From an uncultured Deferribacteres bacterium (GTDB taxonomy: Bacteria > Zhuqueibacterota > Zhuqueibacteria > Zhuqueibacterales > Geothermadaptataceae), in assembly GCA_964014485.1 (NCBI GenBank), contig CAXHAT010000037.1, forward strand, positions 1 to 48,219: a stretch of 48,219 nt of DNA, given 5' to 3'. Position 1 is the first letter of the stretch. Each line of letters opens with the position of its first letter. Under the pieces are notes generated by a model. The model had not been told where the DNA came from. It saw only the letters and a list, made by a program, of their open reading frames with translations, and made no database searches. The translations under genes and the position numbers were made by a program. This document shows, piece after piece, positions 7-34,910 of this stretch.

Positions 7-76
7 GTCATTCCCGCGCAGGCGGGAATCTATAAAGCCTGCAACGCCGCTGGAGTCCCGCCTGCGCGGGAATGAC
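7..76. repeat. REP-like inverted repeat (GTCATTCCCGCGCAGGCGGGAATC family), uninterrupted copy
   Basis: GTCATTCCCGCGCAGGCGGGA (7-27) is the exact reverse complement of TCCCGCCTGCGCGGGAATGAC (56-76). The same family recurs at 24360-24583. Confidence 0.9.
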
Positions 77-190
77 GTGGAGCATGAAAGGAAGACATTT
101 GTGAATCAGCCGGGTTAGAATGGCATGAAAGAAAAAAGAGTTCACTACAATCCATAATTGTTTCATTCATCAAACCAAGGGAGATTGGAG

Positions 191-14456: not shown

Positions 14457-14789
14457 ACTACAAACGACGGTGCGTTTTGAGCACTCGGAAAGTTGAAGAA
14501 AGCACTGTCGTTTGTAGTCCACGCTTTAGCGTGTTATTGAATTGTGAGCTTTTCTCAAGACGTGGATTGAGTTTATGTATTGGTTGGCGGATGCAATCCG
14601 AGGGCATTGGAGCGTCGGGGATTTTATGAAAGCCGAGCTGGAAGAAAATCCCCGACGAGCATGACTCGCAAGCAGGAATGCTTGCGTTACGACGATGCGT
14701 GAATTGACGACGATGCGTGAATTGAAATTTTAATGACTGGACGCTGAGCGTCCGAGAGTGCGTGGCAACGCAGAGCATTGTCACGAGAG
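14442..14789. repeat. Cluster of REP-like hairpins of several families plus an 18-bp tandem duplication
   Basis: IR 14457-14473/14502-14518 flanked by GTAG-type palindromes (14442-14455, 14520-14533); IR 14613-14625/14645-14657; hairpins at 14667-14686, 14739-14753 and 14760-14786; ACGACGATGCGTGAATTG x2 at 14689-14724. Confidence 0.75.
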
Positions 14790-14810
14790 GTGAATAAAAC
14801 GGAGGCTTTT

Positions 14811-17690
14811 ATGGCACATCAAATTTTTTTGAAGCGCCGCCTTTTAGCAGTTTTTTTAGTGTTCCTGGCGGCTTGCCCGGTCTTCGCGGGGGAGACGGGC
14901 AAGATCGCCGGGAAGGTGATCGACAAAACCAGCGGCGAGCCGTTGCCGGGGGCGAACATTGTGCTCGAAGGCACAAATCTGGGCGCGGCCTCGGACGTGA
15001 ACGGCGATTATTTTATCATCAACGTTCCGCCGGGATTACACCGCGTTCGCGCTTCTTTTGTCGGCTACCAGACCGAAATCCAGCAGGATGTGCGCGTACA
15101 AGTCGACCGCACAACGCCGTTGAATTTCGCGCTTTCCGAAGAAGCGATCAGCGCGGAAGAAGTGGTGGTCGTGGCTTACCGCCCGGAAACGGTGGAGCAG
15201 GATTTGACTGCGACGAAGCAAACCTATGACGTTGCTGAAATTGAGGATTTGCCCGGCATTAATGACGTCGGCGACATCATCAATCTGCAAGCGGACGTTT
15301 CGGACGGGCATTTCCGCGGCGGGCGTGCGGGCGAGGCGGTTTATTTGATCAACGGCGCGAGCCTGCGAAACCCGCTTTCGAATTCTACGGCGTTTGAACC
15401 GTTGACCATCGGCTTGCAGCAGGTTGAAGTTTATACTTCCGGCTTTAGCGCCGAGTACGGCAACGTGCAGTCTGGCGTGATCAACATGGTCGCGAAGGAA
15501 GGGCGCTCCGATAAATGGGAAACGACGATCGACGCATCGACGACGAATTCTTACTACAAGACCCACGGCGGCAGTGTTTTCTCGGAAGATTACATCGACT
15601 ATTTTGACCGTCTCAACAGCACGGAAGAATGGGCGTTCGGCAAAGACCCTATTTCCGGCGTTGATTTATGGGCGCATTTTGGTTTGAGCTTTGACCGCTA
15701 TCTTCCGGACGCTCCGATTGTCTTTCCCCCGCAGCCCATCAGCCGCGAAGACTCCCTGCGCACCGCTGATTTGACCCGAATTCTCTGGCTGCAATCCGTC
15801 CGTGACATCGGTTTGGAATACGACGCGCCTGACTATCGCGTCGAATTTTCCAGCGGTGGACCGCTTGTCAAAAATACGACGATGTTCATCGCCGGACAGC
15901 ACAATGTTTCTCAACCGTTTTTGCCGACGGGCAGACCGAATTTGTCGCAGCAACTGATGAGCAACATCACCTACCACGCCAACGCGAGCAGCAAAATCAA
16001 ACTGCTCTACAATTTCAGCAACGGCTTCAGCAACGGCATCACGAGCAATTATTTTCGCTGGTTTGAGCGCGCCACGAATGTGACGAAGCAAACGCGCAGC
16101 ACGCATCAAGTTGGTCTGGCGTGGAACAAAGTGCTCAACCCTTCAACCTTTGTCGATCTCAAAATCAGCCAGCTCTTTACGCGCGAAGAAGACAAAATCG
16201 ATTTGCTTGGCGACAGCACTTTCACCCAGCTTTATACCGACCGGATCAATTGGCGCGACTACACGGCGCCGACCGGTTACCAAATCGGCAAATTGCAGAC
16301 AACCAGCGGCTCGGAAAAAACCAATACGCTGACCTTCAACGGCAGCCTGACGAGCCAGATTAACAAGAACAACTTGTTGAAGGCGGGATTTCAGTTCTAC
16401 CGCTACGATATTGATGTGGCGTATCTTCGCAGCCGCAGCAACGCATCGCAATTGCGTTTGGAGAATTACAAAAAGACGCCGTTTGAAGGCGCGTTCTATG
16501 TGCAGGACAAGCTCGAGTTCGAGGGGATGATCGCGAACCTGGGCATGCGTTACGATTTTTACGATCTGAACACGCAGTTTTTCACCAACAAGTTCTCGCC
16601 CTATCTAAATCCAAACTTCGATCCGACCGATCCTGAGCAGGGCGCGTTTTATGACGAGTCGCTGGCGGCGACGCAAAACACGAGTCTGCGCCATCATTTC
16701 CAGCCGCGTATTGGCATTTCATTCCCGGTTTCCGATCAGGCGGTGCTGCATTTGAACTACGGCGTTTTTACCCAGCGTCCGGCGTTTGAGTACATTTTTG
16801 TCAACCGCCTGCGCTATCAGGGCACGCCGGATTATGAGCGCCTCGGAAACCCGGAGCTTGAGCCGGAGCGCACGATTTCCTACGACATTGGTCTTGTTCG
16901 CGCCCTGCCGCTCGGCTTCTATCTGGATGTGAGCGCTTATCTGAAAGATGTGAGCAACCTGTTGCAATTCGCGGTTTATGAAGACAACGGCGGCAATCGC
17001 TATTTCACGTTCGACAATCGCGAATATGCCAACGTGAAAGGCTTTCACGTCAATTTGGAAAAGAATCTTGGCTGGCTGCGCGGATATGTGCGCTACAATT
17101 GGGAAGCGGCGAAAGGCAAGTCCGGCGGCGCTATCGGCAGCGGCGCACGCGCGGAGTTTTTTGAGAACGACGCTCTCGACGACATCCTGCCGTCACCCAA
17201 AGACATCTTTCTGGATTTCGACCGGACGCACAAGCTGGTCGGAAATTTGAGCTTGCGCACAAATAAAAACGCCGGCTTCTCACTTTTCGGATTTCACCCG
17301 TTCGGCGATCTTTCCATAAGCGGGACTTACCGCCTGTCTTCGGGACGACCCTTTACCTGGGATCCGAGCGGGCAGGGCTTGCAAATGAATCAGCGTTCAC
17401 CGACCGAGCATGATTTGCGCGCGCGTTTGAACAAGACGGTTTCGATTAACGGCACGGGCGCGAAGTTCTACGCCGAGGCTTTCAACCTGTTGAACAAGCG
17501 GTTCTTCAACTATGGACGGACGTTTCAAGACCCGCAGGGCGAGCAGAATACGTTCAAGATTCGCTACATGGAAGATCGCGAAAACCTGCTGACCCAAACC
17601 GAATTCGCGCCTTACTTCACCAGTCTGGAAGGCTATCTTTTTGGCAACCAGCCCCGGCATTATCGGTTCGGGATCGAGTTTGATTTTTAG
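14811..17690 (+). CDS. TonB-dependent receptor with N-terminal carboxypeptidase-regulatory-like domain
   Basis: GGAGG SD then ATG; TGKIAGKVIDK..GEPLPGANI; plug motifs FRGGR and SGFSAEYGN..SGVIN; PRIGISFP; GNPELEPERTISYDIG; terminal Phe. Confidence 0.92.
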   Translation: MAHQIFLKRRLLAVFLVFLAACPVFAGETGKIAGKVIDKTSGEPLPGANIVLEGTNLGAASDVNGDYFIINVPPGLHRVRASFVGYQTEIQQDVRVQVDRTTPLNFALSEEAISAEEVVVVAYRPETVEQDLTATKQTYDVAEIEDLPGINDVGDIINLQADVSDGHFRGGRAGEAVYLINGASLRNPLSNSTAFEPLTIGLQQVEVYTSGFSAEYGNVQSGVINMVAKEGRSDKWETTIDASTTNSYYKTHGGSVFSEDYIDYFDRLNSTEEWAFGKDPISGVDLWAHFGLSFDRYLPDAPIVFPPQPISREDSLRTADLTRILWLQSVRDIGLEYDAPDYRVEFSSGGPLVKNTTMFIAGQHNVSQPFLPTGRPNLSQQLMSNITYHANASSKIKLLYNFSNGFSNGITSNYFRWFERATNVTKQTRSTHQVGLAWNKVLNPSTFVDLKISQLFTREEDKIDLLGDSTFTQLYTDRINWRDYTAPTGYQIGKLQTTSGSEKTNTLTFNGSLTSQINKNNLLKAGFQFYRYDIDVAYLRSRSNASQLRLENYKKTPFEGAFYVQDKLEFEGMIANLGMRYDFYDLNTQFFTNKFSPYLNPNFDPTDPEQGAFYDESLAATQNTSLRHHFQPRIGISFPVSDQAVLHLNYGVFTQRPAFEYIFVNRLRYQGTPDYERLGNPELEPERTISYDIGLVRALPLGFYLDVSAYLKDVSNLLQFAVYEDNGGNRYFTFDNREYANVKGFHVNLEKNLGWLRGYVRYNWEAAKGKSGGAIGSGARAEFFENDALDDILPSPKDIFLDFDRTHKLVGNLSLRTNKNAGFSLFGFHPFGDLSISGTYRLSSGRPFTWDPSGQGLQMNQRSPTEHDLRARLNKTVSINGTGAKFYAEAFNLLNKRFFNYGRTFQDPQGEQNTFKIRYMEDRENLLTQTEFAPYFTSLEGYLFGNQPRHYRFGIEFDF

Positions 17691-17796
17691 AAAAATGTAT
17701 GTCGTTTTAACTCAAAATGATTGAAGTCAAAATCATAAATCAAAAAACTTCGTCATTTTGACTCTAATAATTCTGACTTTAAAATGGAGTCATAGA

Positions 17797-20115
17797 ATGA
17801 AATTGAAGATGACTCGAATAATTTTGCCTTTTCTTGCGCTTGCTGCTTTTGAAGCGTCAGCGCAGGTGCGGGAGTTTCGTATTCATGATCGCGGCATGAT
17901 CCATCAGACGGTTTTTAACACCGGTACGATTGGCCGCCCGTGGCTCGTATTCGCCACAACGAATTTGCCGCTGATGGAGTGGCCGCCGCGCTCGCGCACC
18001 ATCATTGAAGGCATCGAGTACGACGGGCACCACAATTCGTGGGGCGGCGGCGTGTACGTTTCCGCTAACGAAGACGGCAAACCAGGCGCGGACAATCGCA
18101 TGTACGCCTTCTGCGGCGGTGTTGGGACGCGGACGCAGACCGAGCTGCCGTTTGGAATCTGGAGCTTTCCGCTCTCCCTCGAAGAAATTGAGAATTACCC
18201 GCTTTTGGAAAACGGCGAATTGAATCCGAATTATGATCCGAACGAAGCGGAAGAAATCATTATCGCGAAATGGGCCACACCCGTCGGCATTACCATCACG
18301 CGCACCTCGCGCACCTGGAGCTACCCCGATTTCGACGACATGATTCTCTACGAATACGAGCTCGAGTACACCGGCGACACCGACGGCAATCCGGCGACGA
18401 TTGAGCGCACGACGAAATTGAAGGATGTGCTGTTCCACGTTAATTACGGTTTTGGGCCGTCAAAAATGGCGTTTGGGCGCTGGTACGGCGAGCCGTGGTT
18501 TTACGGCGATCCCGGCGGCATCTACCGCTCGGACCAGCGCTACTCCATGGACCCGGATTATTGGCTGCTCTGGCAGACTTCAACGCAGACCGGTTTTGGC
18601 GACCAGGTAGAGGCTTTCTCCGCCAAGCCGGAACCTGATCCAGATTTGTTCTTGGAATTTGCGCAGACAGGTATTAACGGCGGCGGACTTTTGGGCGCAG
18701 CTTGTCCGGGTTACGCCTTTTTGTACTGGGATTCCAATCACTTGGCGGTCGTCGATCCGATTGACCGCGACCGCAACGAATCGGATTACGTGAATTTTAT
18801 GCTGCGCGACAACAGCAACCGGTTTTTTGAAACCGACGAAAACGGCCATATTCTGCAGCCGTGGAACATGAAAACCGGCACGCCAAATACGCGCTCGCCA
18901 AAGATGATCGACCGCGCCGCGACGCTGGACGAACGCTGGTGGACGGTCTTCGGCGAAGTCGGCGTTCCATCGGGATTTCCTTCCGACGGCGGCCGATACG
19001 TGCTGCCGGGCGGACGGGAATGGAAGGGGCGCGCGCGGTTTGAGTGGGACGAAAGTTACAACGGCGGCATGGCGATTACCGGTTTCGGCCCTTATACTTT
19101 GGAACATGGCGAAAAACTCGAATTTGCGATGGCGGAAGTCATCGGTTATGGCGGCACGGCCGGTAAAATGACGCTCGGCGGTCAACGCGACCGGCAGTTC
19201 TACCCGATTCGAGATTGGAACAAAAAAGTCGAAATTGACGGGCGGGTTTTGACGGAAAATTATCTCGACGATTTCGGCTATCCCGACCACATCAATTCCG
19301 ATGTGATCACTGTGCAGCAGGTCGCTCACAAAGCGCACGAAGCTTATCTCGGCGAAGAAATTCCTTATGACGCGGCGGGTACGGGGCCGGCAGCCAGCGA
19401 ACGTTATCCGACCGGTATGATTTTCCCTGAAATTAATCCGCGCCCCTCGACGAACGCCAACAAGTACCAGATTCCAGCGCCCGTCCCGGCTCCGGTGATC
19501 ACCGTTGAAAATACAGCGACGGCAACGGTAAAAGTCAAATGGGGACGTGCGGTCGAGAGCTTCAGCCATCCACGTTTGTTGGGTAATTTAGCGAAGTTTT
19601 ACGTGTTTCGCGCCGATCTCTCCGCCGGGCCGTTTGCGCTGCTCGATTCGGTTGAGATTGGAAGCGTGAACGATGAAGGCATGTATGAATTTGAGGACAC
19701 GGATCAAGGCTTCAGACTCGGCGAGACCAAATTCTACGCGGTGACCTCGGTTGACGAACACGGCAACCAAAGCGGACGCACGAATTTTACCGAGCACGCC
19801 AAAAACGTCGCTTCAGTGGAAACGTTGGGCAAGGTTTACGCCGTGCCAAATCCGTTCGTCGTCGAATCCGGTTTTGACGGGCAGGGACAGAAAAACGCCA
19901 TTGGCTTTTATGGCCTTCCCGAACGCGCCACCATTCGAATTTTCAGCTACAGTGGTCAGCTTATCGAAACGATTGAGCACGACGAGCGCGTTTTTTCCAC
20001 GCCCTGGTTCCAGGTGACGCGCAATAATCAGGATATCGCCTCGGGCGTTTATTTTTACATTGTCTCAACGCCGGGCGGCGAGAAAGCGACCGGCAAATTA
20101 TTCATCATGAAGTAA
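17797..20115 (+). CDS. TBDR-associated secreted hypothetical protein with Fn3-like region and variant T9SS-type CTD
   Basis: GGAG SD and signal peptide; PAP...YAVTSVD Fn3-like segment; C-terminal VYAVPNPF...IRIFSYSG...IASGVYFY...GKLFIMK. Confidence 0.8.
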   Translation: MKLKMTRIILPFLALAAFEASAQVREFRIHDRGMIHQTVFNTGTIGRPWLVFATTNLPLMEWPPRSRTIIEGIEYDGHHNSWGGGVYVSANEDGKPGADNRMYAFCGGVGTRTQTELPFGIWSFPLSLEEIENYPLLENGELNPNYDPNEAEEIIIAKWATPVGITITRTSRTWSYPDFDDMILYEYELEYTGDTDGNPATIERTTKLKDVLFHVNYGFGPSKMAFGRWYGEPWFYGDPGGIYRSDQRYSMDPDYWLLWQTSTQTGFGDQVEAFSAKPEPDPDLFLEFAQTGINGGGLLGAACPGYAFLYWDSNHLAVVDPIDRDRNESDYVNFMLRDNSNRFFETDENGHILQPWNMKTGTPNTRSPKMIDRAATLDERWWTVFGEVGVPSGFPSDGGRYVLPGGREWKGRARFEWDESYNGGMAITGFGPYTLEHGEKLEFAMAEVIGYGGTAGKMTLGGQRDRQFYPIRDWNKKVEIDGRVLTENYLDDFGYPDHINSDVITVQQVAHKAHEAYLGEEIPYDAAGTGPAASERYPTGMIFPEINPRPSTNANKYQIPAPVPAPVITVENTATATVKVKWGRAVESFSHPRLLGNLAKFYVFRADLSAGPFALLDSVEIGSVNDEGMYEFEDTDQGFRLGETKFYAVTSVDEHGNQSGRTNFTEHAKNVASVETLGKVYAVPNPFVVESGFDGQGQKNAIGFYGLPERATIRIFSYSGQLIETIEHDERVFSTPWFQVTRNNQDIASGVYFYIVSTPGGEKATGKLFIMK

Positions 20116-20136
20116 TGTCAAATCGGAGGACTCAAT

Positions 20137-21132
20137 ATGTTTAGGCGAAGAATCCCTGCCTGCTGCCTGCTGATTATGGCATTCGCTATGACCGGCTCGC
20201 TGAACGCACAGGTCACCGGGCTCGACCAGGTCGGCACAACGTCTTTTCAGTTCTTGCAGATCGTGCCAAATGCGCGCGCGGCCGGGATGGGAAGCGTTGG
20301 CGCGGCAATGCTGCAATCATCAGAAGCCGCATTTTATAATCCCGCCGCTCTGTCTCACACCGAAAATCTCGATCTTTCGCTCTCATATCTTGACTGGTTT
20401 CTAGACGTCAAGCTGACGAGTTTTTCTCTTTCCTATAATCTTTCGAGTTTCGGCACGGTTGGACTGCATCTCTTGTATAATGACATCGGAGAGTTCGAAG
20501 AAACGCGCGTCGATCAACTGGTTCGCGATGACGCGACCGGCGTTTACAACCCTGGCTTGACCGGCAACACCTTTAGCCCGAACTCGATGGTTTTTGGCCT
20601 TTCCTACGCCAAATCCTTAACGGACAAATTCTCATTCGGCTTGACCGCGAAGTTCGCGCGCGAAGACCTGATTGCGCAAAACACATCGTCAATCATTTTC
20701 GACGGCGGTCTGTTGTACTCTACCGGCCTTAAATCGCTGATGCTCGGCGCGATGCTGCGCAATTTCGGGCCGGAAATCAAATATTTCAACGAAGGCTACC
20801 CGTTGCCGCAGGCGTTTTCAATCGGCGTGTCCGGTTATTTGATTGGCCCGGATAACGCTTTCCTCTCAAACTCGAGTTCGCAAAAACTGCTGCTCGCTTA
20901 CGACCTTGCCCAAACGCGCGATCATAGCCAGCAGCAACATATCGGAGCAGAATACGCTTTCAGCGATTTTCTCATGATTCGCAGCGGCTACAAAATTAAC
21001 TTTGACGAAGAAGGCTTGACCCTCGGGTTCGGCCTGAAATTCAGCAAAATGCAATTCGACTACGCTTACAACGATTTCGGCAGTTTCCTCGGCAGCGTGC
21101 AGCGCGTGTCGCTGAATTTTTCATTTAATTGA
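20137..21132 (+). CDS. PorV/PorQ (UPF0164)-family outer-membrane protein
   Basis: GGAGG SD; GTTSFQFLQI.PNARAAGMG...AAFYNPAAL; GLSYAK.LTDKFSFG; beta-strand C-terminus. Confidence 0.85.
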   Translation: MFRRRIPACCLLIMAFAMTGSLNAQVTGLDQVGTTSFQFLQIVPNARAAGMGSVGAAMLQSSEAAFYNPAALSHTENLDLSLSYLDWFLDVKLTSFSLSYNLSSFGTVGLHLLYNDIGEFEETRVDQLVRDDATGVYNPGLTGNTFSPNSMVFGLSYAKSLTDKFSFGLTAKFAREDLIAQNTSSIIFDGGLLYSTGLKSLMLGAMLRNFGPEIKYFNEGYPLPQAFSIGVSGYLIGPDNAFLSNSSSQKLLLAYDLAQTRDHSQQQHIGAEYAFSDFLMIRSGYKINFDEEGLTLGFGLKFSKMQFDYAYNDFGSFLGSVQRVSLNFSFN

Positions 21133-23064: not shown

Positions 23065-23305
23065 CTGATGTTACGCACAGCAAAACATTCCCTAGGCTCA
23101 ACCGCAAACAGCGGCTCGTTCCCAAACTTCGGTTTGGGAACGGAAATGCACTCGAAACTCCAGTTTCGAGTGCAATTTCGATCCCAATCCAGAGATTGGG
23201 ATCGAGAATCTTGGGCTTCTCGAAATTAGGTTGACGGTAATACGGCTCCGCAGTACTGACGTTAATAATCGGTGGCTGTATTATAGAACTGGCGCGTAAC
23301 ATCAA
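23065..23305. mobile_element. Miniature inverted-repeat element A (241 bp) with 7-bp target duplication and an internal triple-hairpin REP
   Basis: Ends CTGATGTTACGCAC / GCGCGTAACATCAA; direct repeat ATTGTAA at 23058-23064 and 23306-23312; hairpins at 23117-23142, 23147-23174 and 23178-23205. Confidence 0.8.
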
Positions 23306-27195: not shown

Positions 27196-28275
27196 TTACG
27201 AGAAAGCCAACTCTCCACGTCCAAGCTGTTTCAAAAACCGGACGTGTGCGCCAACCGCCGCTCGGACGCTTGGGTAAGACAGGTATGAAATGCCGAAATC
27301 CTTACAAGTTTGCTCCACGATCTTGCTGATTTCCGGGTAATGCACGTGGCAGATTCTCGGAAAGAGATGATGCTCGATTTGAAAATTCAGTCCCCCCAGC
27401 ATCCATGTAGCCAGCTTGTTTCTCCGTGCAAAGTTTGCCGTCGTCTCCACTTCATGTATCGCCCATTCATTCTCTATTTGTCCGGATGACGGGTCGGGCG
27501 AAGGGAAAGAATTGCCTTCAACCGTATGCGCTAGTTGGAACACGATTGAAGTAATGAAGCCAAGCAAGAGATGTGTGGCAATAAAAAATATGATCACCAG
27601 CCAGATCGGGTGGAAGAACATTGGCAGTATGAGAGTATAAAAGTAGTAAAGTGACTTGCTTACAAAGAAAATCGATGCATTTTTAAGAGTCGGCTTCGGC
27701 AATTTATATTCGCCGATTCGTCCTGAAACCAATTTGTAAAGATCGCCAAACGTCACCCAAATAATCGTCAAGAGACTGTAGGCGGGAAATGCATAGATAT
27801 GTTGAAAACGGTGCCAGGAGTGACGTTTTTGCACCGGACTTAAACGCATGAGTCCGCCGAGGTGAATATCGTCGTCAAGCTCATCGATATTTGTGTAGGT
27901 GTGGTGCAGAATGTTGTGTTTATGGCGCCAGAGCCAGTTGCTTGCGCCGACCAATTCCAGGGTATAGCTGAGAACGCCGTTTATTTTTTTGTTTTTTGAA
28001 TAGCTGCCGTGATTTGCGTCGTGCATGATGTTAAAACCTACCAGTGCAGAGCTCACAGCAAATGTAATTGCAGCGATAATCGCTAAGAAAAGATTTATTT
28101 CAAAGAATACTAGAGAGACGTATGAAGTTATGAGAACAGCCATGATTACAGCCGTTTTTACGAACATTCGCCAATCGCCGTTTTGTGAAATGTTGTTTTT
28201 TTCGAAATAGCGATTGACGCGTTTTTTAAGCTCCTTTTGAAAGCCCGCTCGCCCTGGGAAACTGATTTTTTGCAT
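27196..28275 (-). CDS. Membrane fatty-acid (acyl-CoA/acyl-lipid) desaturase
   Basis: His boxes HDANH, HNILHH and QIEHH; transmembrane segments. Confidence 0.92.
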   Translation of the reverse strand: MQKISFPGRAGFQKELKKRVNRYFEKNNISQNGDWRMFVKTAVIMAVLITSYVSLVFFEINLFLAIIAAITFAVSSALVGFNIMHDANHGSYSKNKKINGVLSYTLELVGASNWLWRHKHNILHHTYTNIDELDDDIHLGGLMRLSPVQKRHSWHRFQHIYAFPAYSLLTIIWVTFGDLYKLVSGRIGEYKLPKPTLKNASIFFVSKSLYYFYTLILPMFFHPIWLVIIFFIATHLLLGFITSIVFQLAHTVEGNSFPSPDPSSGQIENEWAIHEVETTANFARRNKLATWMLGGLNFQIEHHLFPRICHVHYPEISKIVEQTCKDFGISYLSYPSVRAAVGAHVRFLKQLGRGELAFS

Positions 28276-28703
28276 TCGAAGACATCCGTTCGGTTAAAAT
28301 CCAAAGTTTTGTTCAAATAAAACCCCATGAGTCAATGTGCTATTACGCAATTTCAAAATGTAGTTGCGTGATAACAAAATTGCGTGTTCTAACGGCTCTG
28401 ATCCTGTTTCTCGCCTTTCTCCCGCACGAAAGGTAAGGTTCATTGAAAGACCGGGTTTGTGGTCACAGGAGATAAGATGATATAAAAGACGCTTTTGGCT
28501 TAAACGTCGGGAAGTATCATTAGAAAAATAGGGTTGGTTTGGAAAAGATCAGGTTTTCATTGGCGCCGGAAAAGCTAAAAACGGTTCGCGCCGCGCGACA
28601 AAAAATCAATATATAGAGTTTTGTGGCGGTGTGGCAACATTGGCGGGACGAGTTGTAAAGTTATGCAAAAACTTTAACTTTCTAATGACGCCATTTGGGA
28701 GAA

Positions 28704-29999
28704 TTATACGTGTATTCCGCGGTTGACGGCGCTGTATAGCGGAACAGTAAAGACGCCGTCGTTGATTAGATAGACCAATTCCGGGCGCGCTTCTTGGGGC
28801 AGCCCCTTGTCCAAAGCTTCTTGCAGTGAGGTATAATGCTGAATCTCTTCGAGATGACCAAGGGGCTCCGGCAATTGAGAAACGCAAAAGATATGATTCC
28901 GCCGGGAATACTCTGCAAGAAGAGTGCGCATTAATTTTTCTTCAATGCCAGAGAGTTGGTTGGGGGATTCATTCAGAAATGAGCCGTTTGAAGAAGTTGA
29001 ATTTCGGAATCCGTTATACCCAAAACCTTGCTGGCAAGCCGCAGATAAAAAGACGGCCCCGCCAGGTCGCGTGGATCGAAGTGCCCGTAAAAGAGCGGGA
29101 ACGGCGTCAATAAACCGGTTGTCGTGCGGCGCGCCGCCGGGCGAAACGATCGTTGCGTCGGCTTGACGTTCGATATCAACGACGGAGAGAGAATCGACGA
29201 TTTCCAAGCCTGCGGCAAAAGCCTGGAAAGGGTGACCTGAAAATGCGGAAACGAGTCCGTTGTTGTGATTAAACACAACATAAAATCCAAATCGTGCTGA
29301 AATGAATCTTAGCGATTCACGGATGCTTTCTTGAATAGGATTGCCTTCCGTCGAACAGTCGGTGCAGCGTTTATGCACCTTTCCCTTTGCGTCTAGCGCC
29401 TGATCATAGAGCCTGGCAATGGTAACTTCGCCTGCGCAGTCAGGAACTATAACTGACGGCCCGCCGCTATATCCTAAAAGGGGATGCGGCGCAATTGGAC
29501 TGCATAAAATAATTTCATCCGCATCCAAAATATGCTTGTTCAGGAAAATCGGCGTTCCGGAATGTGTTTCTCCGACAAACTCTAGTTGAGCTTGGTCCGT
29601 TGCATCATGCTGGAAAATTTGATAGCGTTCGAATATCTCTTCCCCAAAGAATTGAATAATCTGCGAACGATTGAGCGGAACTCTGCGGCGCCCCGCCAGC
29701 AAAATTTTTACTTCTTTGTCTAAAACATGCGCTTGACGCAGGGAAGCGAGCAGAGCATTTAATGCAGCAACGGCTTGGCCGCGCCAATTGTTTTGAGGAA
29801 GGACAATTAGGAGATTTCGAGCGCGCCGAAAGAGACGGCGGGCGGGGTATGAACCAACGGATCTATCAAGCGAACGGGACAGCAAATCGGCGGAACACTG
29901 CAACGAAGTGACGCGGCGAGGCTTCAATTCCACCAATGGCGCTTTCAGCCGCAGCTTCGCCTGCGTGTAAGAATCTCCATATTTTAACTTCAGTACCAT
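28704..29999 (-). CDS. LarA (lactate racemase/DUF2088)-like protein with degenerate active site
   Basis: LKYG N-terminus, GETxxGTP...N, PHxxxGYSGG, GNP, SPGGAPHD, RPGG...AAC.QGFG follow the LarA layout, but several catalytic residues are missing. Confidence 0.75.
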   Translation of the reverse strand: MVLKLKYGDSYTQAKLRLKAPLVELKPRRVTSLQCSADLLSRSLDRSVGSYPARRLFRRARNLLIVLPQNNWRGQAVAALNALLASLRQAHVLDKEVKILLAGRRRVPLNRSQIIQFFGEEIFERYQIFQHDATDQAQLEFVGETHSGTPIFLNKHILDADEIILCSPIAPHPLLGYSGGPSVIVPDCAGEVTIARLYDQALDAKGKVHKRCTDCSTEGNPIQESIRESLRFISARFGFYVVFNHNNGLVSAFSGHPFQAFAAGLEIVDSLSVVDIERQADATIVSPGGAPHDNRFIDAVPALLRALRSTRPGGAVFLSAACQQGFGYNGFRNSTSSNGSFLNESPNQLSGIEEKLMRTLLAEYSRRNHIFCVSQLPEPLGHLEEIQHYTSLQEALDKGLPQEARPELVYLINDGVFTVPLYSAVNRGIHV

Positions 30000-30155
30000 G
30001 CGTAATCCGACGACATTCTTTGCGCTTCATAGAGAATGGCTCAAAAAAGATGAGAGTGCTGCAATGCTCTCCTGTCAATGGCAAATTCTTTCTAAAAATT
30101 GATTTGAGCCACATTTTGAAAATGCGATTGAGTCATTCATTCTTCTGTCCGTTTC

Positions 30156-30184
30156 AAAGTAGACCTTACTTGCAAAAATGTCAA
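30156..30184 (-). promoter_or_regulatory. Putative sigma70 promoter for the LarA-like gene
   Basis: Minus strand reads TTGACA-17 nt-TACTTT. Confidence 0.5.
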
Positions 30185-30318
30185 TGCTTTTTGCCGAAGC
30201 GCAGTATTGATACAATGTCTCAACTTCGAACAGAGCGTTCACGTCTTTGCGCCCCCAAATGCGTGCCGCCGAAGCGATTTTTGAAGGTGACGAGTCGTTA
30301 AAAAATCGCTCGCTAACG

Positions 30319-30334
30319 TGGCATGAAGTTGGCT
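30319..30334 (+). promoter_or_regulatory. Putative sigma54 (-24/-12) promoter
   Basis: TGGCATGAAGTTGGCT has exact GG-N10-GC spacing and is close to the TGGCACGNNNNTTGC consensus. Confidence 0.55.
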
Positions 30335-30344
30335 AAAGTACTCG

Positions 30345-30686
30345 CAGCTTTTCGTTCTTTTCTCAGACGCCAGAAAAAGTCGGTCGCGCTTAACGCAACA
30401 TGCCAGGGAAGGGCAGACGCAGCAACTCAGAATTTGTCATGGATTGACGGGCGCGCATCTTTGAACTGCTTCACGAACTTACCGACTTTTGGAGTAGGAC
30501 TCATCACCTCGCACTGCAACTTTGCTCCCTGGTGGACAGGGACGCCGCCGGAAATATGGAGTCTGATTGCTAACGCGTGTATGGGAACACGAAAAGAAGG
30601 AATTGCTAAAATTACCTCCTCCTCGTTTTGGGTATACCTTAAAATCTAAAAGGGACATGGCTCTCCGCCATGTCCCTTTTTGTTTT
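30345..30686 (+). ncRNA. Candidate Csr/Rsm-type (CsrA-sequestering) small RNA, about 340 nt
   Basis: 11 GGA motifs, five in loops of short hairpins (30401-15, 30436-48, 30492-502, 30526-42, 30576-91); long-range 10-bp stem 30375-84/30481-90; bounded by a promoter-like motif and a terminator. The 5' end is estimated. Confidence 0.6.
30648..30686 (+). terminator. Intrinsic terminator
   Basis: AAAAGGGACATGGC-TCTCC-GCCATGTCCCTTTT followed by TGTTTT. Confidence 0.85.
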
Positions 30687-30701
30687 CCGGTCGCCTTTCA
30701 C

Positions 30702-30729
30702 TTGCCATTTGACCTTTCCCGCATATAAT
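30702..30729 (+). promoter_or_regulatory. Putative sigma70 promoter for the DapA-family gene
   Basis: TTGCCA-16 nt-TATAAT just after the terminator. Confidence 0.5.
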
Positions 30730-30779
30730 AGCCGTCACGAAATTCATACATAGCGACAAGCATATTTTTGGAGATGTGA

Positions 30780-31679
30780 ATGATGGGTGAGAAATTGCGA
30801 GGCGTATTTCCAGCGGTGACTACGAAATTTACTGAAGATGACAAGCTGGATTTCAAGGAAATGGAGCGGCATTTTAATTTTCAGCTCGAAGCCGGCGTAC
30901 ACGGCCTGGTCGTGACAGGCTCGCTTGGCGAAAACGGTTCGTTGAGCGCGGCAGAAAAAATAGATGTTTTGAAAATAGCGGTTGAAGTCAGCAACGGCAA
31001 AGTTCCCGTCTTGGCTGGCGTGGCTGAAAACACGACTTCTGACATGTGCAAGACCTTGGAAGAGAGCCGCAAACAAGGGGCGGACGGTTTCATGCTCTTG
31101 CCGCCTATGCGCTACGTCTCAGACAGACGTGAAACGATCCAATACCTGCGCACTGGCGCTGCCGCGACTGACGCGCCAATAATGATCTACAACAATCCCG
31201 TCGCCTATGGCGTGGACGTTACCCCGGAAATGTTTGTTGAGTTGGCTGACGAGCCAAAATTTATCGCCATGAAAGAATCTTCCGACGACGTTCGGCGCAT
31301 AACGGATATTTACAATGCCTGCGGCGATCGCTACCAGGTCTTTACCGGAGTGGATAACATTGCATTGGAGAGCATTTTTCTCGGCGCCGTTGGCTGGATT
31401 GCCGGTTTGGTTTGCGCTTTTCCGCGAGAGACGGTTGTTTTATATGATTTGGCTGTGGCGGGAAAAATTGAAGAAGCCAGAAAGCTCTATCGCTGGTTCA
31501 AGCCTCTGCTGGATTTGGACGTTTCGACCAAGCTCGTACAAAATATCAAACTTGCTGAAGCGATGGCGGGCGTGGGCAATGAGCGGGTGCGTTTGCCAAA
31601 ACTCCCACTCGCTGGAGCGGAACGAGAACGTGCCGCACGCACTATTCAAAAAGCACTGAATGAACGACCGGCTTTGTAA
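30780..31679 (+). CDS. DapA/NAL-family protein, resembles 1-pyrroline-4-hydroxy-2-carboxylate deaminase
   Basis: GVFPAVTT, GSLGE, MIYNNP (Tyr), MKESS (Schiff-base Lys), GVD, GWIAGLVCAFPRE, LYRWF.PLL.LD...KLVQ.IKLA. Confidence 0.85.
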   Translation: MMGEKLRGVFPAVTTKFTEDDKLDFKEMERHFNFQLEAGVHGLVVTGSLGENGSLSAAEKIDVLKIAVEVSNGKVPVLAGVAENTTSDMCKTLEESRKQGADGFMLLPPMRYVSDRRETIQYLRTGAAATDAPIMIYNNPVAYGVDVTPEMFVELADEPKFIAMKESSDDVRRITDIYNACGDRYQVFTGVDNIALESIFLGAVGWIAGLVCAFPRETVVLYDLAVAGKIEEARKLYRWFKPLLDLDVSTKLVQNIKLAEAMAGVGNERVRLPKLPLAGAERERAARTIQKALNERPAL

Positions 31680-31717
31680 TCCGGCCGATGTTTTTCAAAA
31701 AATTGGTGGGGGATCGA

Positions 31718-31925
31718 TTAAAGGATTTTTACAAGTGCTGCGATTGCCCCAACAGCAACGACCATCATCGCTCCAAGTCGCTATTCAAGCTCTTTGAGCT
31801 TTTCGTCGAGGCGTTGTCGCGTAACTAATTGTCTGCCCACTAATTCAGCCACGATCTGCGTCTGCACTTCAGCTTGGTTCTCTTGTTAAGCCAAAGGCTT
31901 TGAGTCTCTTTACATGCGTTAGCGC
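31718..31925 (-). pseudogene. DUF1640/CCDC90-like gene remnant
   Basis: Manual translation: THVKRLKAFGLT [frameshift] ENQAEVQTQIVAELVGRQLVTRQRLDEKLKELE*RLGAMMVVAVGAIAALVKIL*. No start codon seen. Confidence 0.75.
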
Positions 31926-32070
31926 TTGGTTTTACACGGAAATTCAACTCTGAATTTACTGTACGCGTGTAAAAGTCAACGTGATAATTTAGTCTGCCGT
32001 GCTTTTTTACCAAAGTTTATCCTTATCGCACTGGATTCAATGGCCTATAGAATCTACGGCAAGTCATGGT

Positions 32071-32502
32071 TCACTGCTTCTGGTTTGCCGACTTGCCAGC
32101 TTTTTGATCCTCTTCAATTATTTTCATACTCTCAGTCCAGTCGGCATAGACCTGCCATAACTTTATTTTATCATTTTCTACTATCGCCTTCCAGGCGGCT
32201 GTCCATCTAACCCGATTTTCCGGAATCAGCCCACGATTGCCATTGTATGTTCCGCAGGCCGTTCCAAGTGCAACGACCAAATTGCCATCTTGAAGTATGT
32301 TTTCAAAGTTGTTTTTATAATCGGGGAACATACGAAAAAAATCTTCCCATCCTTCAGTCATTTCCTTGACTCCTGTATGAGCAGTACCGCTAACGTCTAT
32401 AAATGTATGATCTTCAGCCATCAAACTCGATAACAACTCAATATTACCTTCATTTATAGCATTGTTAAAAGATAGCACTATTTTAATTTCTTTCGTCTCC
32501 AT
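32071..32502 (-). CDS. SnoaL/NTF2-like protein
   Basis: GAGG SD before METKE; F..AIN.G....L..LMAEDHTFID..G, W..FF..FPDY, I..WQVYAD; AT-rich. Confidence 0.8.
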   Translation of the reverse strand: METKEIKIVLSFNNAINEGNIELLSSLMAEDHTFIDVSGTAHTGVKEMTEGWEDFFRMFPDYKNNFENILQDGNLVVALGTACGTYNGNRGLIPENRVRWTAAWKAIVENDKIKLWQVYADWTESMKIIEEDQKAGKSANQKQ

Positions 32503-32684
32503 TTTTCCTCGCTTATTCACGACTAACATTTTCTCAATATATCAAAAGCATCGCATTGACTATTTTAGCGCCCGCCTCAAAGCTTACGGAGCAACCCGCT
32601 TTTTGAATTAAATCAAAATGCCTAAATTCAAAAGATGCGGAAAGCGAACTCGGTTATGGAAGAGATAAAAGAGTTTTCCTTATT

Positions 32685-34910
32685 CTAAAACGCAAAAAGC
32701 TTGGTCGCTTTGAGCGTCAAAATGCGATTCAAAACCGCGCTTGCGCCAGGGAGAGCGTCCAAATCTCTCTCTTCTTGATAAACCAGAAAAATATCGCTCA
32801 GTGGCGCGTGGATGAGGTTGAAGCGCATGTTACTTACCATTTTTTCCTCGATTTGATTGTATTGCACAAACGCGCTCAAAAAGGTGCGTGTATTATGGCC
32901 GTAACGCAATCTTGCTCCAAACAAATTCGCTTCAAATGATTCGCCGCCAAGATTCAGGCGATTTCGCTCGAACGAGCCTGACAAGTACCAACGCACCGAA
33001 GGTCTGAGTGCAAAAGAGCTTGAAATCGAATTCCGCGTGCCGTCAAAAAAGTCGCCGAAACGTAAGGTGACCACCCCGGAAATCTTTTTTCCCCCGTCAG
33101 ATTGATAGCGCAATGCGCCGGAGTTAAACCGGTAATCGCCGGCAGGAACCTCAGCGCTTGCGATAGGGGTCGCCTCCGCCAGGTGCTCAAATCGCGAAGA
33201 AAATTCCAACGTCATTCGACTGCTATTGGTCAAAACGGTGGTGAAGCCGGGCGAGAATTCGCGGCTTTCCAATTTGCCGTCCAAATCTGTAAAATAATCG
33301 ATGTCGATGTAAGGATTGAGCTCAAAGACTTTTTTGATTTTGGGCTGCGGATGCGCACCGACGGTTAGGAATCCACGCCGCACGCCTTCACGACTGACAA
33401 ACCCGATTCCCGGGTCAAAATTTTCGCCGACGGTTTTCAAAAGAAAAGATGCGTTCCAAAGCGGATCGCGCCACGCCATTTGCAGTGACGCCGCTGATTG
33501 GCTCCCGCTTGTGTCGGAAGATTGAACGGTTGCCGCGTAAGCGTTGAGTAATAAATTCCGAAAAAGCCGAAGGTTGGCGTCGGCGCCAACAACCCGATTG
33601 TACTCGTCTGAGTTTTCCTGACGATTGGTAAACATCACGCCGATGTCCGAGCTTTTAAGCACGTTGCGCCGTAATCGGGTGACAAAGAAATTCTCTCCAG
33701 ACTCCACGTCTGAGTCGCGCGTTTGCATGGACAACAGCCCAAGGTCAAAGTCGCCGACGCGCCCTGTCAAACGCGCTCCCGCAGCGATTGGAATTGGCTC
33801 ACGGTCGCTTGAAAGCCCGATGCGCCGAGAGTGAAACAGTTTGAAATTTTGCGGCCCTGAGCCTGTGCGATAATTTCGCACACGAACATCGGAAAAATTG
33901 AACACGCCGTCATTTTCCAGAAAAAAATCCCGTCTTTCCGGGAAAAAAAGCGAAGCGCGAGTCAGGTTGATCTGTTGCTCATCCACCTCGACTTGGGAGA
34001 AATCCGTCAGGGCGGTCATGTCCAGGGTCAAGCGCGGCGTTACGCCCCATTTCACGTCGAAGCCGCCATCGAAATTGTTTTTGACAGCATTTTCTTCCAA
34101 AGATGCGCCTGTGTTTCGCGCCGTACTCAGGTAAGGCTTAATCCAAATATTTCGCCCCTGAACAAGATCGCGTAAGCCTGTGAGCGTGCCCGCCTGAGAC
34201 ATTTTATAAACTCGGAATTGTCGCGGCAGCGGGGCCCAGTTTGAGTCCTCGCTGCGACGGCGAATTCGGCGAGAAAAGTTGACTCCCCAAGTCTGCTCGC
34301 CGTCCTGTTCATTAAAGCGCAGTGTCGTGATTGGAATCGCCATTTCCACAATCCAGCCATGACCGCCTGTTGAAGTTTTGACCTCAACCACACCTTCCCA
34401 TGAGCGGTTGATGTACGCTTGGTCGTTAAACGCCTGGGCATCGAAAAGCGCGCCTGCCGGATTGATCGCAAAAAGAAAGGCGTTTTGACGATCCCAGTAT
34501 GTGTCAATTGCAACGGCGAAAATGTCTGAGTTCTGCGTTTGAAAATCCTGCTCCAGACCCGCCGAAACCAGCTTGTCGGGCTCGGAGTCGTAAAGCAAAG
34601 CGCCAACGTAGAGATTTTTGTTGTCGTAAATAATTCGAACCACGGTGCGCTCAGAAGAATGCACGCCTTGCCGGGGAATGACCTGCCAAAAAACGCCGTC
34701 AGTAGAATCGGCCGCCAACCAGGCGGCTTCGTCTAATTGGCCGTTGACGGAGATTTTGTCGGCTGTAAAGGAGGCGCGCAAGGTTGGTCTGGGCTCAGCA
34801 AGCGGATCAGCGACGGACGCTTCCTGGCTGTGTAAAACAAGCGGAGCCGGGAATAGTAAAAGTAAAAAACACCGTCTCAGAAAAGCGGAGAAGGGGGGAA
34901 GAGCATGCAT
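32685..34910 (-). CDS. CBM9-like/DUF5916 outer-membrane protein
   Basis: VNGQLDEAAW, YDNKNLYVG, WIVEMAIP..TLRF, WGVNF, DFSQVEVD..QINL..LFFPERRDFFLE, LFHSRRIG. Confidence 0.85.
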   Translation of the reverse strand: MHALPPFSAFLRRCFLLLLFPAPLVLHSQEASVADPLAEPRPTLRASFTADKISVNGQLDEAAWLAADSTDGVFWQVIPRQGVHSSERTVVRIIYDNKNLYVGALLYDSEPDKLVSAGLEQDFQTQNSDIFAVAIDTYWDRQNAFLFAINPAGALFDAQAFNDQAYINRSWEGVVEVKTSTGGHGWIVEMAIPITTLRFNEQDGEQTWGVNFSRRIRRRSEDSNWAPLPRQFRVYKMSQAGTLTGLRDLVQGRNIWIKPYLSTARNTGASLEENAVKNNFDGGFDVKWGVTPRLTLDMTALTDFSQVEVDEQQINLTRASLFFPERRDFFLENDGVFNFSDVRVRNYRTGSGPQNFKLFHSRRIGLSSDREPIPIAAGARLTGRVGDFDLGLLSMQTRDSDVESGENFFVTRLRRNVLKSSDIGVMFTNRQENSDEYNRVVGADANLRLFRNLLLNAYAATVQSSDTSGSQSAASLQMAWRDPLWNASFLLKTVGENFDPGIGFVSREGVRRGFLTVGAHPQPKIKKVFELNPYIDIDYFTDLDGKLESREFSPGFTTVLTNSSRMTLEFSSRFEHLAEATPIASAEVPAGDYRFNSGALRYQSDGGKKISGVVTLRFGDFFDGTRNSISSSFALRPSVRWYLSGSFERNRLNLGGESFEANLFGARLRYGHNTRTFLSAFVQYNQIEEKMVSNMRFNLIHAPLSDIFLVYQEERDLDALPGASAVLNRILTLKATKLFAF

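Follow-up and report, generated by a model that had tools for sequence, protein, structure and literature searches.

The stretch of DNA analysed here, 48,219 nt long and in the following called the window, is contig CAXHAT010000037.1 of the assembly GCA_964014485.1 from an uncultured marine bacterium. In it, the 780 nt intergenic gap between two divergent genes, a larA-like and a DHDPS-family gene, holds a small RNA gene that is real, expressed and restricted to the lineage and that has a promoter of the sigma-54 type. The predicted non-coding RNA is ~340 nt long and extends on the plus strand from 30345 to 30686, both ends being deduced from the promoter and the terminator. That this is a stand-alone non-coding gene is well supported by the promoter, an intrinsic terminator, the absence of coding capacity and the presence of the RNA in seawater libraries. 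For its function we favour, loosely and with somewhat less than an even chance of being right, a sigma-54-induced, Hfq-independent riboregulator which would act in trans by base pairing. An earlier, sequence-only reading had taken the same unit for a CsrA sponge.

Promoter, terminator and transcript

The predicted sigma-54-type promoter, TGGCATG-AAGT-TGGCT (TGGCATGAAGTTGGCT), is located at 30319–30334 on the plus strand, with GG at -24 and GC at -12, and sets the predicted start near 30345. It is the sole match in the window to the consensus TGGCAYGNNNNTTGCW if up to one mismatch is allowed; it keeps the GG-N10-GC arrangement and has one mismatch itself. With GG and GC fixed and at most one mismatch, this consensus has 30 matches in the entire genome and 17 of them, the site of the unit included, are intergenic, which here means outside crude gene calls that leave ~15% of the genome as intergenic. 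The reversed control motif occurs 77 times, five times between genes. Because of this intergenic enrichment (17/30 versus 5/77) the consensus can be taken as one that is really used in this genome. The assembly (8.4 Mb in 465 contigs, 97% complete) also contains rpoN, on contig C224, and 44 strong matches to Sigma54_activat with at least 131 bits each, that is, enhancer-binding proteins. None of these 44 is found on contig C37, where the unit sits, and there is no activator gene beside the unit. Judged by its sequence and this genomic background, the site at 30319–30334 very likely functions as a sigma-54 promoter, with transcription starting near 30345. The GG-N10-GC motif pointed out in the sequence-only reading is hence confirmed, the consensus being validated genome-wide and rpoN being present.

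A palindrome with 13 nt arms 12 nt apart (AGCGATTTTTGAA / TTAAAAAATCGCT; 30273–30310, no strand assigned) ends 9 nt before the -24 element and is a candidate for a regulator or IHF-type site. The whole palindrome is absent from all other sigma-54 sites of the genome. The idea of a shared upstream activator site was dropped, since neither GCCGAAGCG repeats nor the palindrome are common to the other sigma-54 sites.

At the 3' end there is an intrinsic terminator (30648–30686, plus strand), as strong as had been claimed. Its hairpin (30648–30680) has a 14 bp stem with seven G-C pairs and a 5 nt loop and is followed by TGTTTT, the tail being TTTTTGTTTT; an A-run on the 5' side gives the element a two-directional appearance.

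Seven public sequencing runs hold part of the region 29900–31100, and four of these are seawater metatranscriptomes from one study. When the five RNA contigs (151–280 nt) from these four runs were aligned to 28000–33000, all of them fell wholly inside 30360–30656, with no loose ends. Relative to the window, they have T30462C and T30470A in common. These contigs are k-mer assemblies which carry neither strand nor true ends nor level, and the runs were picked for containing part of the stretch. Their pattern is consistent with what a discrete RNA from ~30345 to the terminator would leave. No RNA contigs were found over the larA-like or the DHDPS gene in the same four runs, an observation which, given the way the runs were selected, indicates neither silence of these genes nor abundance of the RNA.

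Coding potential

A transcript of this kind might also be the messenger of a small protein. An open frame of 108 aa (30323–30649, plus strand) spans the unit, its end coincides exactly with the start of the terminator stem, and open frames of this length are rare in non-coding DNA. We judge the frame non-coding all the same. Its codon score is -0.08; 99.5% of 2000 long-gene segments score higher (0.27 ± 0.11), and the value falls into the middle of the range of 2400 shadow open reading frames (-0.10 ± 0.17). Its ATG is part of the -24/-12 element, ahead of the predicted start, and no other in-frame ATG follows until codon 87. The frame belongs to no Pfam family, nothing matches it among the six-frame translations of 60 relatives (the best E value, 0.005, comes with internal stops), and a HMMER search of 1.84 billion representative proteins yielded no true homologue: the two matches are long tandem-repeat proteins whose score sums up 22 identical weak matches with E = 3.3 each. 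Read in this frame, the strain differences of the RNA contigs at 30462 and 30470 are both non-synonymous. Such a messenger could also use short frames within the transcript; these have no Shine-Dalgarno sequences or ribosome-binding sites recognizable on reading the sequence. Taken together, an origin of the signal from a small protein gene is very improbable; the ~340 nt are indeed free of a credible reading frame, as had been stated, and no conserved protein is encoded at 30323–30649.

Relation to the downstream gene

More weight has to be given to the possibility that the unit is a cis-acting leader, in which case the sigma-54 promoter would serve the DHDPS gene through a leader of 340 nt and the terminator would be a conditional attenuator, controlled in the manner of a riboswitch or by a protein. 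The unit lies directly upstream of this gene and in the same orientation, with 94 nt between the end of the terminator and the start codon. The RNA contigs stop at or before the terminator, as would be expected if the libraries contained the prematurely ended form, and the body of the RNA is structured (z = -2.63). Furthermore, sigma-54 promoters commonly drive catabolic operons. Against this stands a sigma-70-like promoter, TTGCCA-16-TATAAT (30702–30729, plus strand), which matches at 11 of 12 positions, is not part of the RNA and is inserted between the terminator and the DHDPS gene. Matches of this quality number 146 in the genome; 74 of the 146 are intergenic and 43 of these 74 are at most 150 nt away from the start of a co-oriented gene. 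Since the class is enriched between genes and close to co-oriented starts, the DHDPS gene probably has its own promoter, and the promoter-like motif which had been noticed here from the letters alone gains support from these counts. In addition, there is no match to an Rfam riboswitch or leader, the folds offer no obvious antiterminator alternative, and the DHDPS orthologues of seven relatives (59–71% identity) have neither a larA neighbour nor a similar upstream region. We therefore consider a leader function improbable.

A putative anti-Shine-Dalgarno seed and sibling units

The favoured reading, a base-pairing riboregulator, starts from the element AAAATTACCTCCTCCTCGTTTTGGGT (30608–30633, plus strand), in which an anti-Shine-Dalgarno run, CCTCCTCCTC (30615–30624), occupies a 12 nt loop immediately ahead of the terminator and which we propose as seed. 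The sequence-only reading had not pointed it out. As RNA, this CU run (CCUCCUCCUC) has a mean unpaired probability of 0.81. On its two strands together, the genome has four copies of the 14-mer AAAATTNCCTCCTC, for which our own arithmetic gives a chance expectation of ~0.25. Two of the occurrences are in coding sequence; the two others precede the terminators of the unit described here and of a second unit, on contig C253.

This second unit came from a genome-wide set of sigma-54 sites which lead not to a gene but to a short non-coding stretch that ends in a terminator. At up to two mismatches there are 37 such orphan units. The one at C253:3125–3497 has a perfect promoter match, is of similar length (~365 nt, promoter through terminator) and carries AAAAUUNCCUCCUC in the same position as the unit on C37. 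On contig C84 (3701–3800) a unit of ~85 nt starts with an unpaired CUCUCUCCUCCUC and has UAUGGAUGA in the terminator loop. Further units of this kind with a high-quality site are those at C12:46650–46840 and, on the minus strand, C85:27316–27448. Three of the units on C253, C84, C12 and C85 have GCAAC ~10–15 nt past the -12 element. From their sequences, the units on C37 and C253 look like sibling regulators that share only the seed; a global alignment of the two was discarded as meaningless, as there is no similarity elsewhere.

A concrete target is predicted as well. The seed region 30612–30633 can form ~21 bp, including 12 consecutive pairs, with positions -32 to -9 of a gene on contig C64. 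When the 30 nt seed region was scanned against 6186 predicted start regions, the duplex energy of -32.0 kcal/mol obtained here was the best of all, and none of ten shuffled seeds reached it (best values -26.2 to -29.5 kcal/mol). The gene codes for a 1109 aa TonB-dependent receptor with Plug and CarboxypepD_reg domains. It leads a triad consisting of the receptor, a protein of 730–790 aa without family and a PorV/FadL-like outer-membrane protein (C64:13170–19739), which is paralogous to a triad in the window at 14778–21132. A target among the window's own genes was looked for too and rejected, the seed pairing with all start regions of the window being unremarkable (best -20.5).

In the mechanism that we envisage, one enhancer-binding protein would switch the promoter on upon a signal, and the RNA would act in trans by base pairing. 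It would do so without Hfq, as we did not find this protein in the 97%-complete genome; the idea that the RNA serves as a sponge for Hfq was dropped for the same reason. The unpaired CCUCCUCCUC loop, placed between the folded body and the terminator, would pair with Shine-Dalgarno regions and block the initiation of translation. Its best predicted target would be the ribosome-binding site of the receptor gene on C64, contacted through seed bases including CCUCCUCC, and the C253 unit with its AAAAUUNCCUCCUC would act as a sibling, in the way of multi-copy sigma-54 small RNAs.

Several points weigh against this mechanism and are the reason for holding it loosely. An anti-Shine-Dalgarno run pairs with any strong Shine-Dalgarno sequence; the shuffled seeds have nearly the same mean energy and the outlying position of the target rests on ten shuffles. 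The likeness between the C37 and C253 units is confined to the promoter and 13 specified bases, and of the 37 sigma-54-to-terminator units only a minority has a CU-rich run. It is solely the anatomy of promoter and terminator that speaks for the plus strand, the RNA contigs being strandless, and the folding z-scores are modest and differ little between the strands (-2.63 for plus, -2.97 for minus). Start site, activator and inducing signal are all postulated. Finally, no homologue was found (see below), so that the seed and the helices are predictions from a single sequence.

One may also ask if the structured RNA has another role altogether, either by binding a protein other than CsrA or through the act of transcription beside larA, with GGA and CU motifs being incidental. 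This would fit an orphan RNA without a conserved feature on which a mechanism could be anchored, as well as the modest size of every motif enrichment, and the 780 nt divergent region leaves room for a regulatory interplay with larA. On the other side, AAAAUUNCCUCCUC is common to the C253 unit and is hard to call incidental, and a strong terminator together with a discrete RNA suggests that the product matters rather than mere promoter interference. We regard such another role as rather unlikely, though as a rival to be taken seriously.

Outside the gap, the window contains a sigma-54-like site on the minus strand (23171–23186, TGGGATCGAAATTGCA) with a terminator-like hairpin ~99 nt later. Because a near-identical 16-mer, TGGGATCGCAATTGCA, exists on contigs C16 and C261, this site may be a small repeated unit.

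Search for homologues

No Rfam family reached its gathering score in the window, in line with the expectation that the unit would not turn out to be some other known family. When the search of 29900–30900 was relaxed to E values of up to 10, five matches at chance level appeared, none of them to a riboswitch or to a Csr/Rsm RNA (CsrB, CsrC, RsmX, RsmY, RsmZ). Two known abundant RNAs that were considered as an explanation are ruled out; RNase P RNA (294 bits) and a 6S-like RNA, whose 43.2 bits stay under the cut-off, are both located on contig C23. BLAST-type DNA searches of 60 relatives and then of 166 other genomes of the phylum gave chance matches of ~30 nt only (E 0.004–0.009), and nhmmer found no paralogue of the unit in its own genome. 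When 217 fetched loci, 160 of which surround DHDPS relatives in metagenomes and species genomes, were compared by nhmmer, no match had an E value below 2.7; the best DHDPS relatives from metagenomes are just 72% identical.

GGA motifs and the CsrA proposal

The sequence-only reading had a different function in mind: the RNA would be a decoy whose several GGA motifs, some in hairpin loops, take up dimers of the single CsrA of the genome at the expense of mRNAs, under sigma-54 control. The 11 GGAs which it had counted are present in the 342 nt unit (~1 per 31 nt). This number places the unit in the top 2.6% of genome windows, 2.1% of dinucleotide shuffles have as many, and among the 37 sigma-54 orphan units it is the highest (11 versus seven for the runner-up). 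Depending on the minimal stem, six (≥4 bp, top 0.43% of windows) or seven (≥3 bp, top 2.0%) of the GGAs are in local hairpin loops.

The five hairpins and the perfect 10 bp stem which had been named all exist as complementary sequence on the plus strand. The stem AAAAGTCGGT/ACCGACTTTT (30375–30384/30481–30490) closes a 5' domain (30375–30490), inside which the hairpins TGCC-AGGGAAG-GGCA (30401–30415) and TTTGTCA-TGGAT-TGACGGG (30433–30451) are located; GAG-TAGGA-CTC (30492–30502), TCCCTG-GTGGA-CAGGGA (30526–30542) and CGTGT-ATGGGA-ACACG (30576–30591) follow. The exposure of the GGAs is a different matter. In the thermodynamic (Boltzmann) ensemble only two of the 11 are clearly unpaired, one in the loop at 30441 and the other in that at 30584; the TGGAT loop has unpaired probabilities of 0.97–0.99 and the GGA of the last hairpin one of 0.99. 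The hairpins at 30492–30502 and 30526–30542 are not formed in the minimum-energy fold. The fold that contains the 10 bp stem is 1.9 kcal/mol above the minimum and has four of the 11 GGAs in hairpin loops. The strain differences at 30462 and 30470 break predicted pairs in every fold made and hence neither support nor refute the structure.

The genomic context leaves room for an input to CsrA. One copy of csrA (85.7 bits) adjoins fliW on contig C16 (49553–50104), among unrelated genes, so that both genes which had to be looked for are there, and csrA is widespread in the lineage, being present in 84 of 167 genomes of the phylum including this one. Neither the flagellin N or C domain (PF00669, PF00700) nor FlhA (PF00771) was found in the genome. 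The sister family, f2, shows the same combination, CsrA and FliW but no Flagellin_N match, in 15 of 19 genomes (13 of 17 without the unpublished genomes G016 and G023), whereas in the window's own family, f1, eight of the nine other genomes have flagellin. With FliW and CsrA but no detectable flagellin, the classical flagellin-FliW-CsrA switch cannot operate in its known form, which makes another input to CsrA plausible. In the flagellated relatives of family f1, a flgL-like gene, fliW and csrA are found together. Eight flagellin leaders of flagellated relatives have an invariant ATCA(T/G)GGAGGAT at the Shine-Dalgarno site. The same leaders (G002–G006, G008) show a sigma-28-like promoter, TTAAAG-N-GACGATAT, and a conserved hairpin of the type GCCA(T/G)GGC; these features together form the layout expected of a flagellin message under CsrA control. 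The best-exposed loop of the RNA, GUCAUGGAUUGAC, has TCATGGA in common with the flagellin-leader site, a resemblance that is at most suggestive.

Set against this, the features that define a sponge are poorly developed. Known Csr/Rsm sponges have roughly one GGA per 15–18 nt. The density here is lower, and only four of the motifs in the body are A(R)GGA, a number in the top 2.7% of non-coding windows but exceeded by 87 non-coding loci. At least 21 distinct non-coding loci have more loop GGAs than the unit, among them an array on contig C144. Few GGAs are exposed in either fold considered above, no Csr/Rsm family matched even at the relaxed threshold, and there is neither a paralogue nor a homologue. 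The palindromic box upstream of GacA/UvrY-controlled genes is TGTAAG-N6-CTTACA; nothing with fewer than three mismatches to it is found near the unit, and the window as a whole has seven matches versus 8.9 expected. According to section 8 of a review (PMC7652899), fliW is absent from Gammaproteobacteria and anti-correlated with BarA-UvrY, the driver of Csr small RNAs, which again does not favour a sponge in this host.

In view of this evidence the unit is unlikely to be a Csr-type sponge, and this part of the sequence-only reading was not borne out. Nothing of the kind that would have overturned it outright came up: csrA and a transcript are there, no other Rfam family matches and no conserved protein is encoded; for the conservation of the GGA loops there was no homologue to compare. 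The GGA hairpins may offer one or two contacts to CsrA and are not the defining feature of the RNA. A weaker variant would be a CsrA circuit rewired to an RNA input in a lineage that retained FliW and CsrA when it lost flagellin, in which a sigma-54-induced decoy of low valency, evolved independently, links the signal of an enhancer-binding protein to CsrA outside the Gammaproteobacteria; we look upon it as a long shot. It would be just as doubtful that such a decoy works through its two exposed loops, AUGGAU and AUGGGA, with their likeness to the CsrA site on the flagellin leaders of flagellated relatives. Keyword searches of open-access text (supplements excluded) found no description of a Csr-type small RNA in a lineage bearing fliW, nor one of FliW-CsrA being kept without flagellin.

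The array on C144 (3350–3653) is the densest GGA stretch among the non-coding windows, with 20 GGAs in 303 nt, mostly as a degenerate tandem array of 13 copies of GGAATAAT. It adjoins the start of a large minus-strand gene on the upstream side, in divergent orientation. Considered as a rival sponge, it gave no promoter, terminator or Rfam match. It may represent an RNA that binds CsrA, a (UCCA)n leader read from the opposite strand or a repeat acting at the DNA level. At the end of the same contig, downstream of the large gene (10–313, minus strand), there are two copies of a ~130 nt unit rich in TTTGGA and GGATTTGCCGGAAAA.

Genomic setting

The LarA-like gene is located at 28704–29999 on the minus strand (Lar_N, 7e-31) and the DHDPS-family gene at 30780–31679 on the plus strand (1.2e-58). 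Homologues of the former exist in 20 of the 28 other genomes of the order, at 33–41% identity only. As there is no close orthologue of the larA-like gene in the order, the arrangement of larA, RNA and DHDPS is peculiar to this lineage. The window also encodes polysaccharide lyases, TonB-dependent/SusC-like receptors and proteins with sorting domains or tails of the type IX secretion system (T9SS). Among species genomes, the closest relatives of the DHDPS protein come from metagenome-assembled genomes labelled candidate division KSB1 (70–71% identity). These relatives, together with the T9SS sorting domains and the SusC-like receptors, agree with the lineage resembling the Fibrobacteres-Chlorobi-Bacteroidetes (FCB) group that the sequence-only reading had assumed.

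Significance and comparison with known systems

If the favoured reading as a base-pairing riboregulator is true, candidate division KSB1 would gain its first described small RNA, which would also add a case of sigma-54-controlled riboregulation in the wider FCB-like bacteria, where RNA regulators are almost undescribed. Since the transcript is expressed and a definite target, the TonB-dependent receptor, is predicted, the proposal is testable in a heterologous host. Separately, the finding that this genome and most of family f2 keep fliW-csrA without a detectable flagellin raises the question of how CsrA is controlled there; the RNA described here does not answer it, but is one of few candidates that can be tested.

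As a regulator the RNA is of an ordinary type; what is new is its family, which is restricted to the lineage. With CsrB/CsrC and RsmX/Y/Z it has in common that it is non-coding, ends in a terminator, carries several GGAs, some in predicted short hairpin loops, and has a cognate CsrA in its host. Its GGA density is roughly two to three times lower than that of known sponges, and it has no Rfam similarity to them. Their promoters depend on GacA/UvrY, whereas here the promoter is of the sigma-54 type and the host has fliW.

CrcZ and CrcY of Pseudomonas are sigma-54-dependent and ~400 nt long. According to PMC5113210 and PMC4063720, they are induced by CbrB and sequester Hfq/Crc via A-rich motifs. 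The resemblance lies in a long regulatory RNA, the proposed soaking up of a repressor, a carbon-use context and the induction by an enhancer-binding protein. For the RNA described here, however, no Hfq was found, the motif would be GGA and not AAnAAnAA, there is no sequence similarity and no activator gene is adjacent. Four non-coding RNAs belong to the sigma-54 regulome of Desulfovibrio vulgaris Hildenborough according to PMC4641369. That host belongs to a different phylum; it is also a free-living bacterium with many enhancer-binding proteins and orphan sigma-54 promoters that drive non-coding RNAs.

Qrr1–5 of Vibrio are multi-copy sigma-54 small RNAs, and small RNAs of the RsaE/RoxS type mask Shine-Dalgarno sequences with a C-rich seed. 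Compared with Qrr, the RNA described here is three times longer and has no Hfq at its side, its status as a sibling depends on one 13-base element and its targets are predicted. What it would share with these two groups is the layout of siblings under one promoter class that have a short seed in common, and an unpaired, C/U-rich seed directed against the ribosome-binding site.

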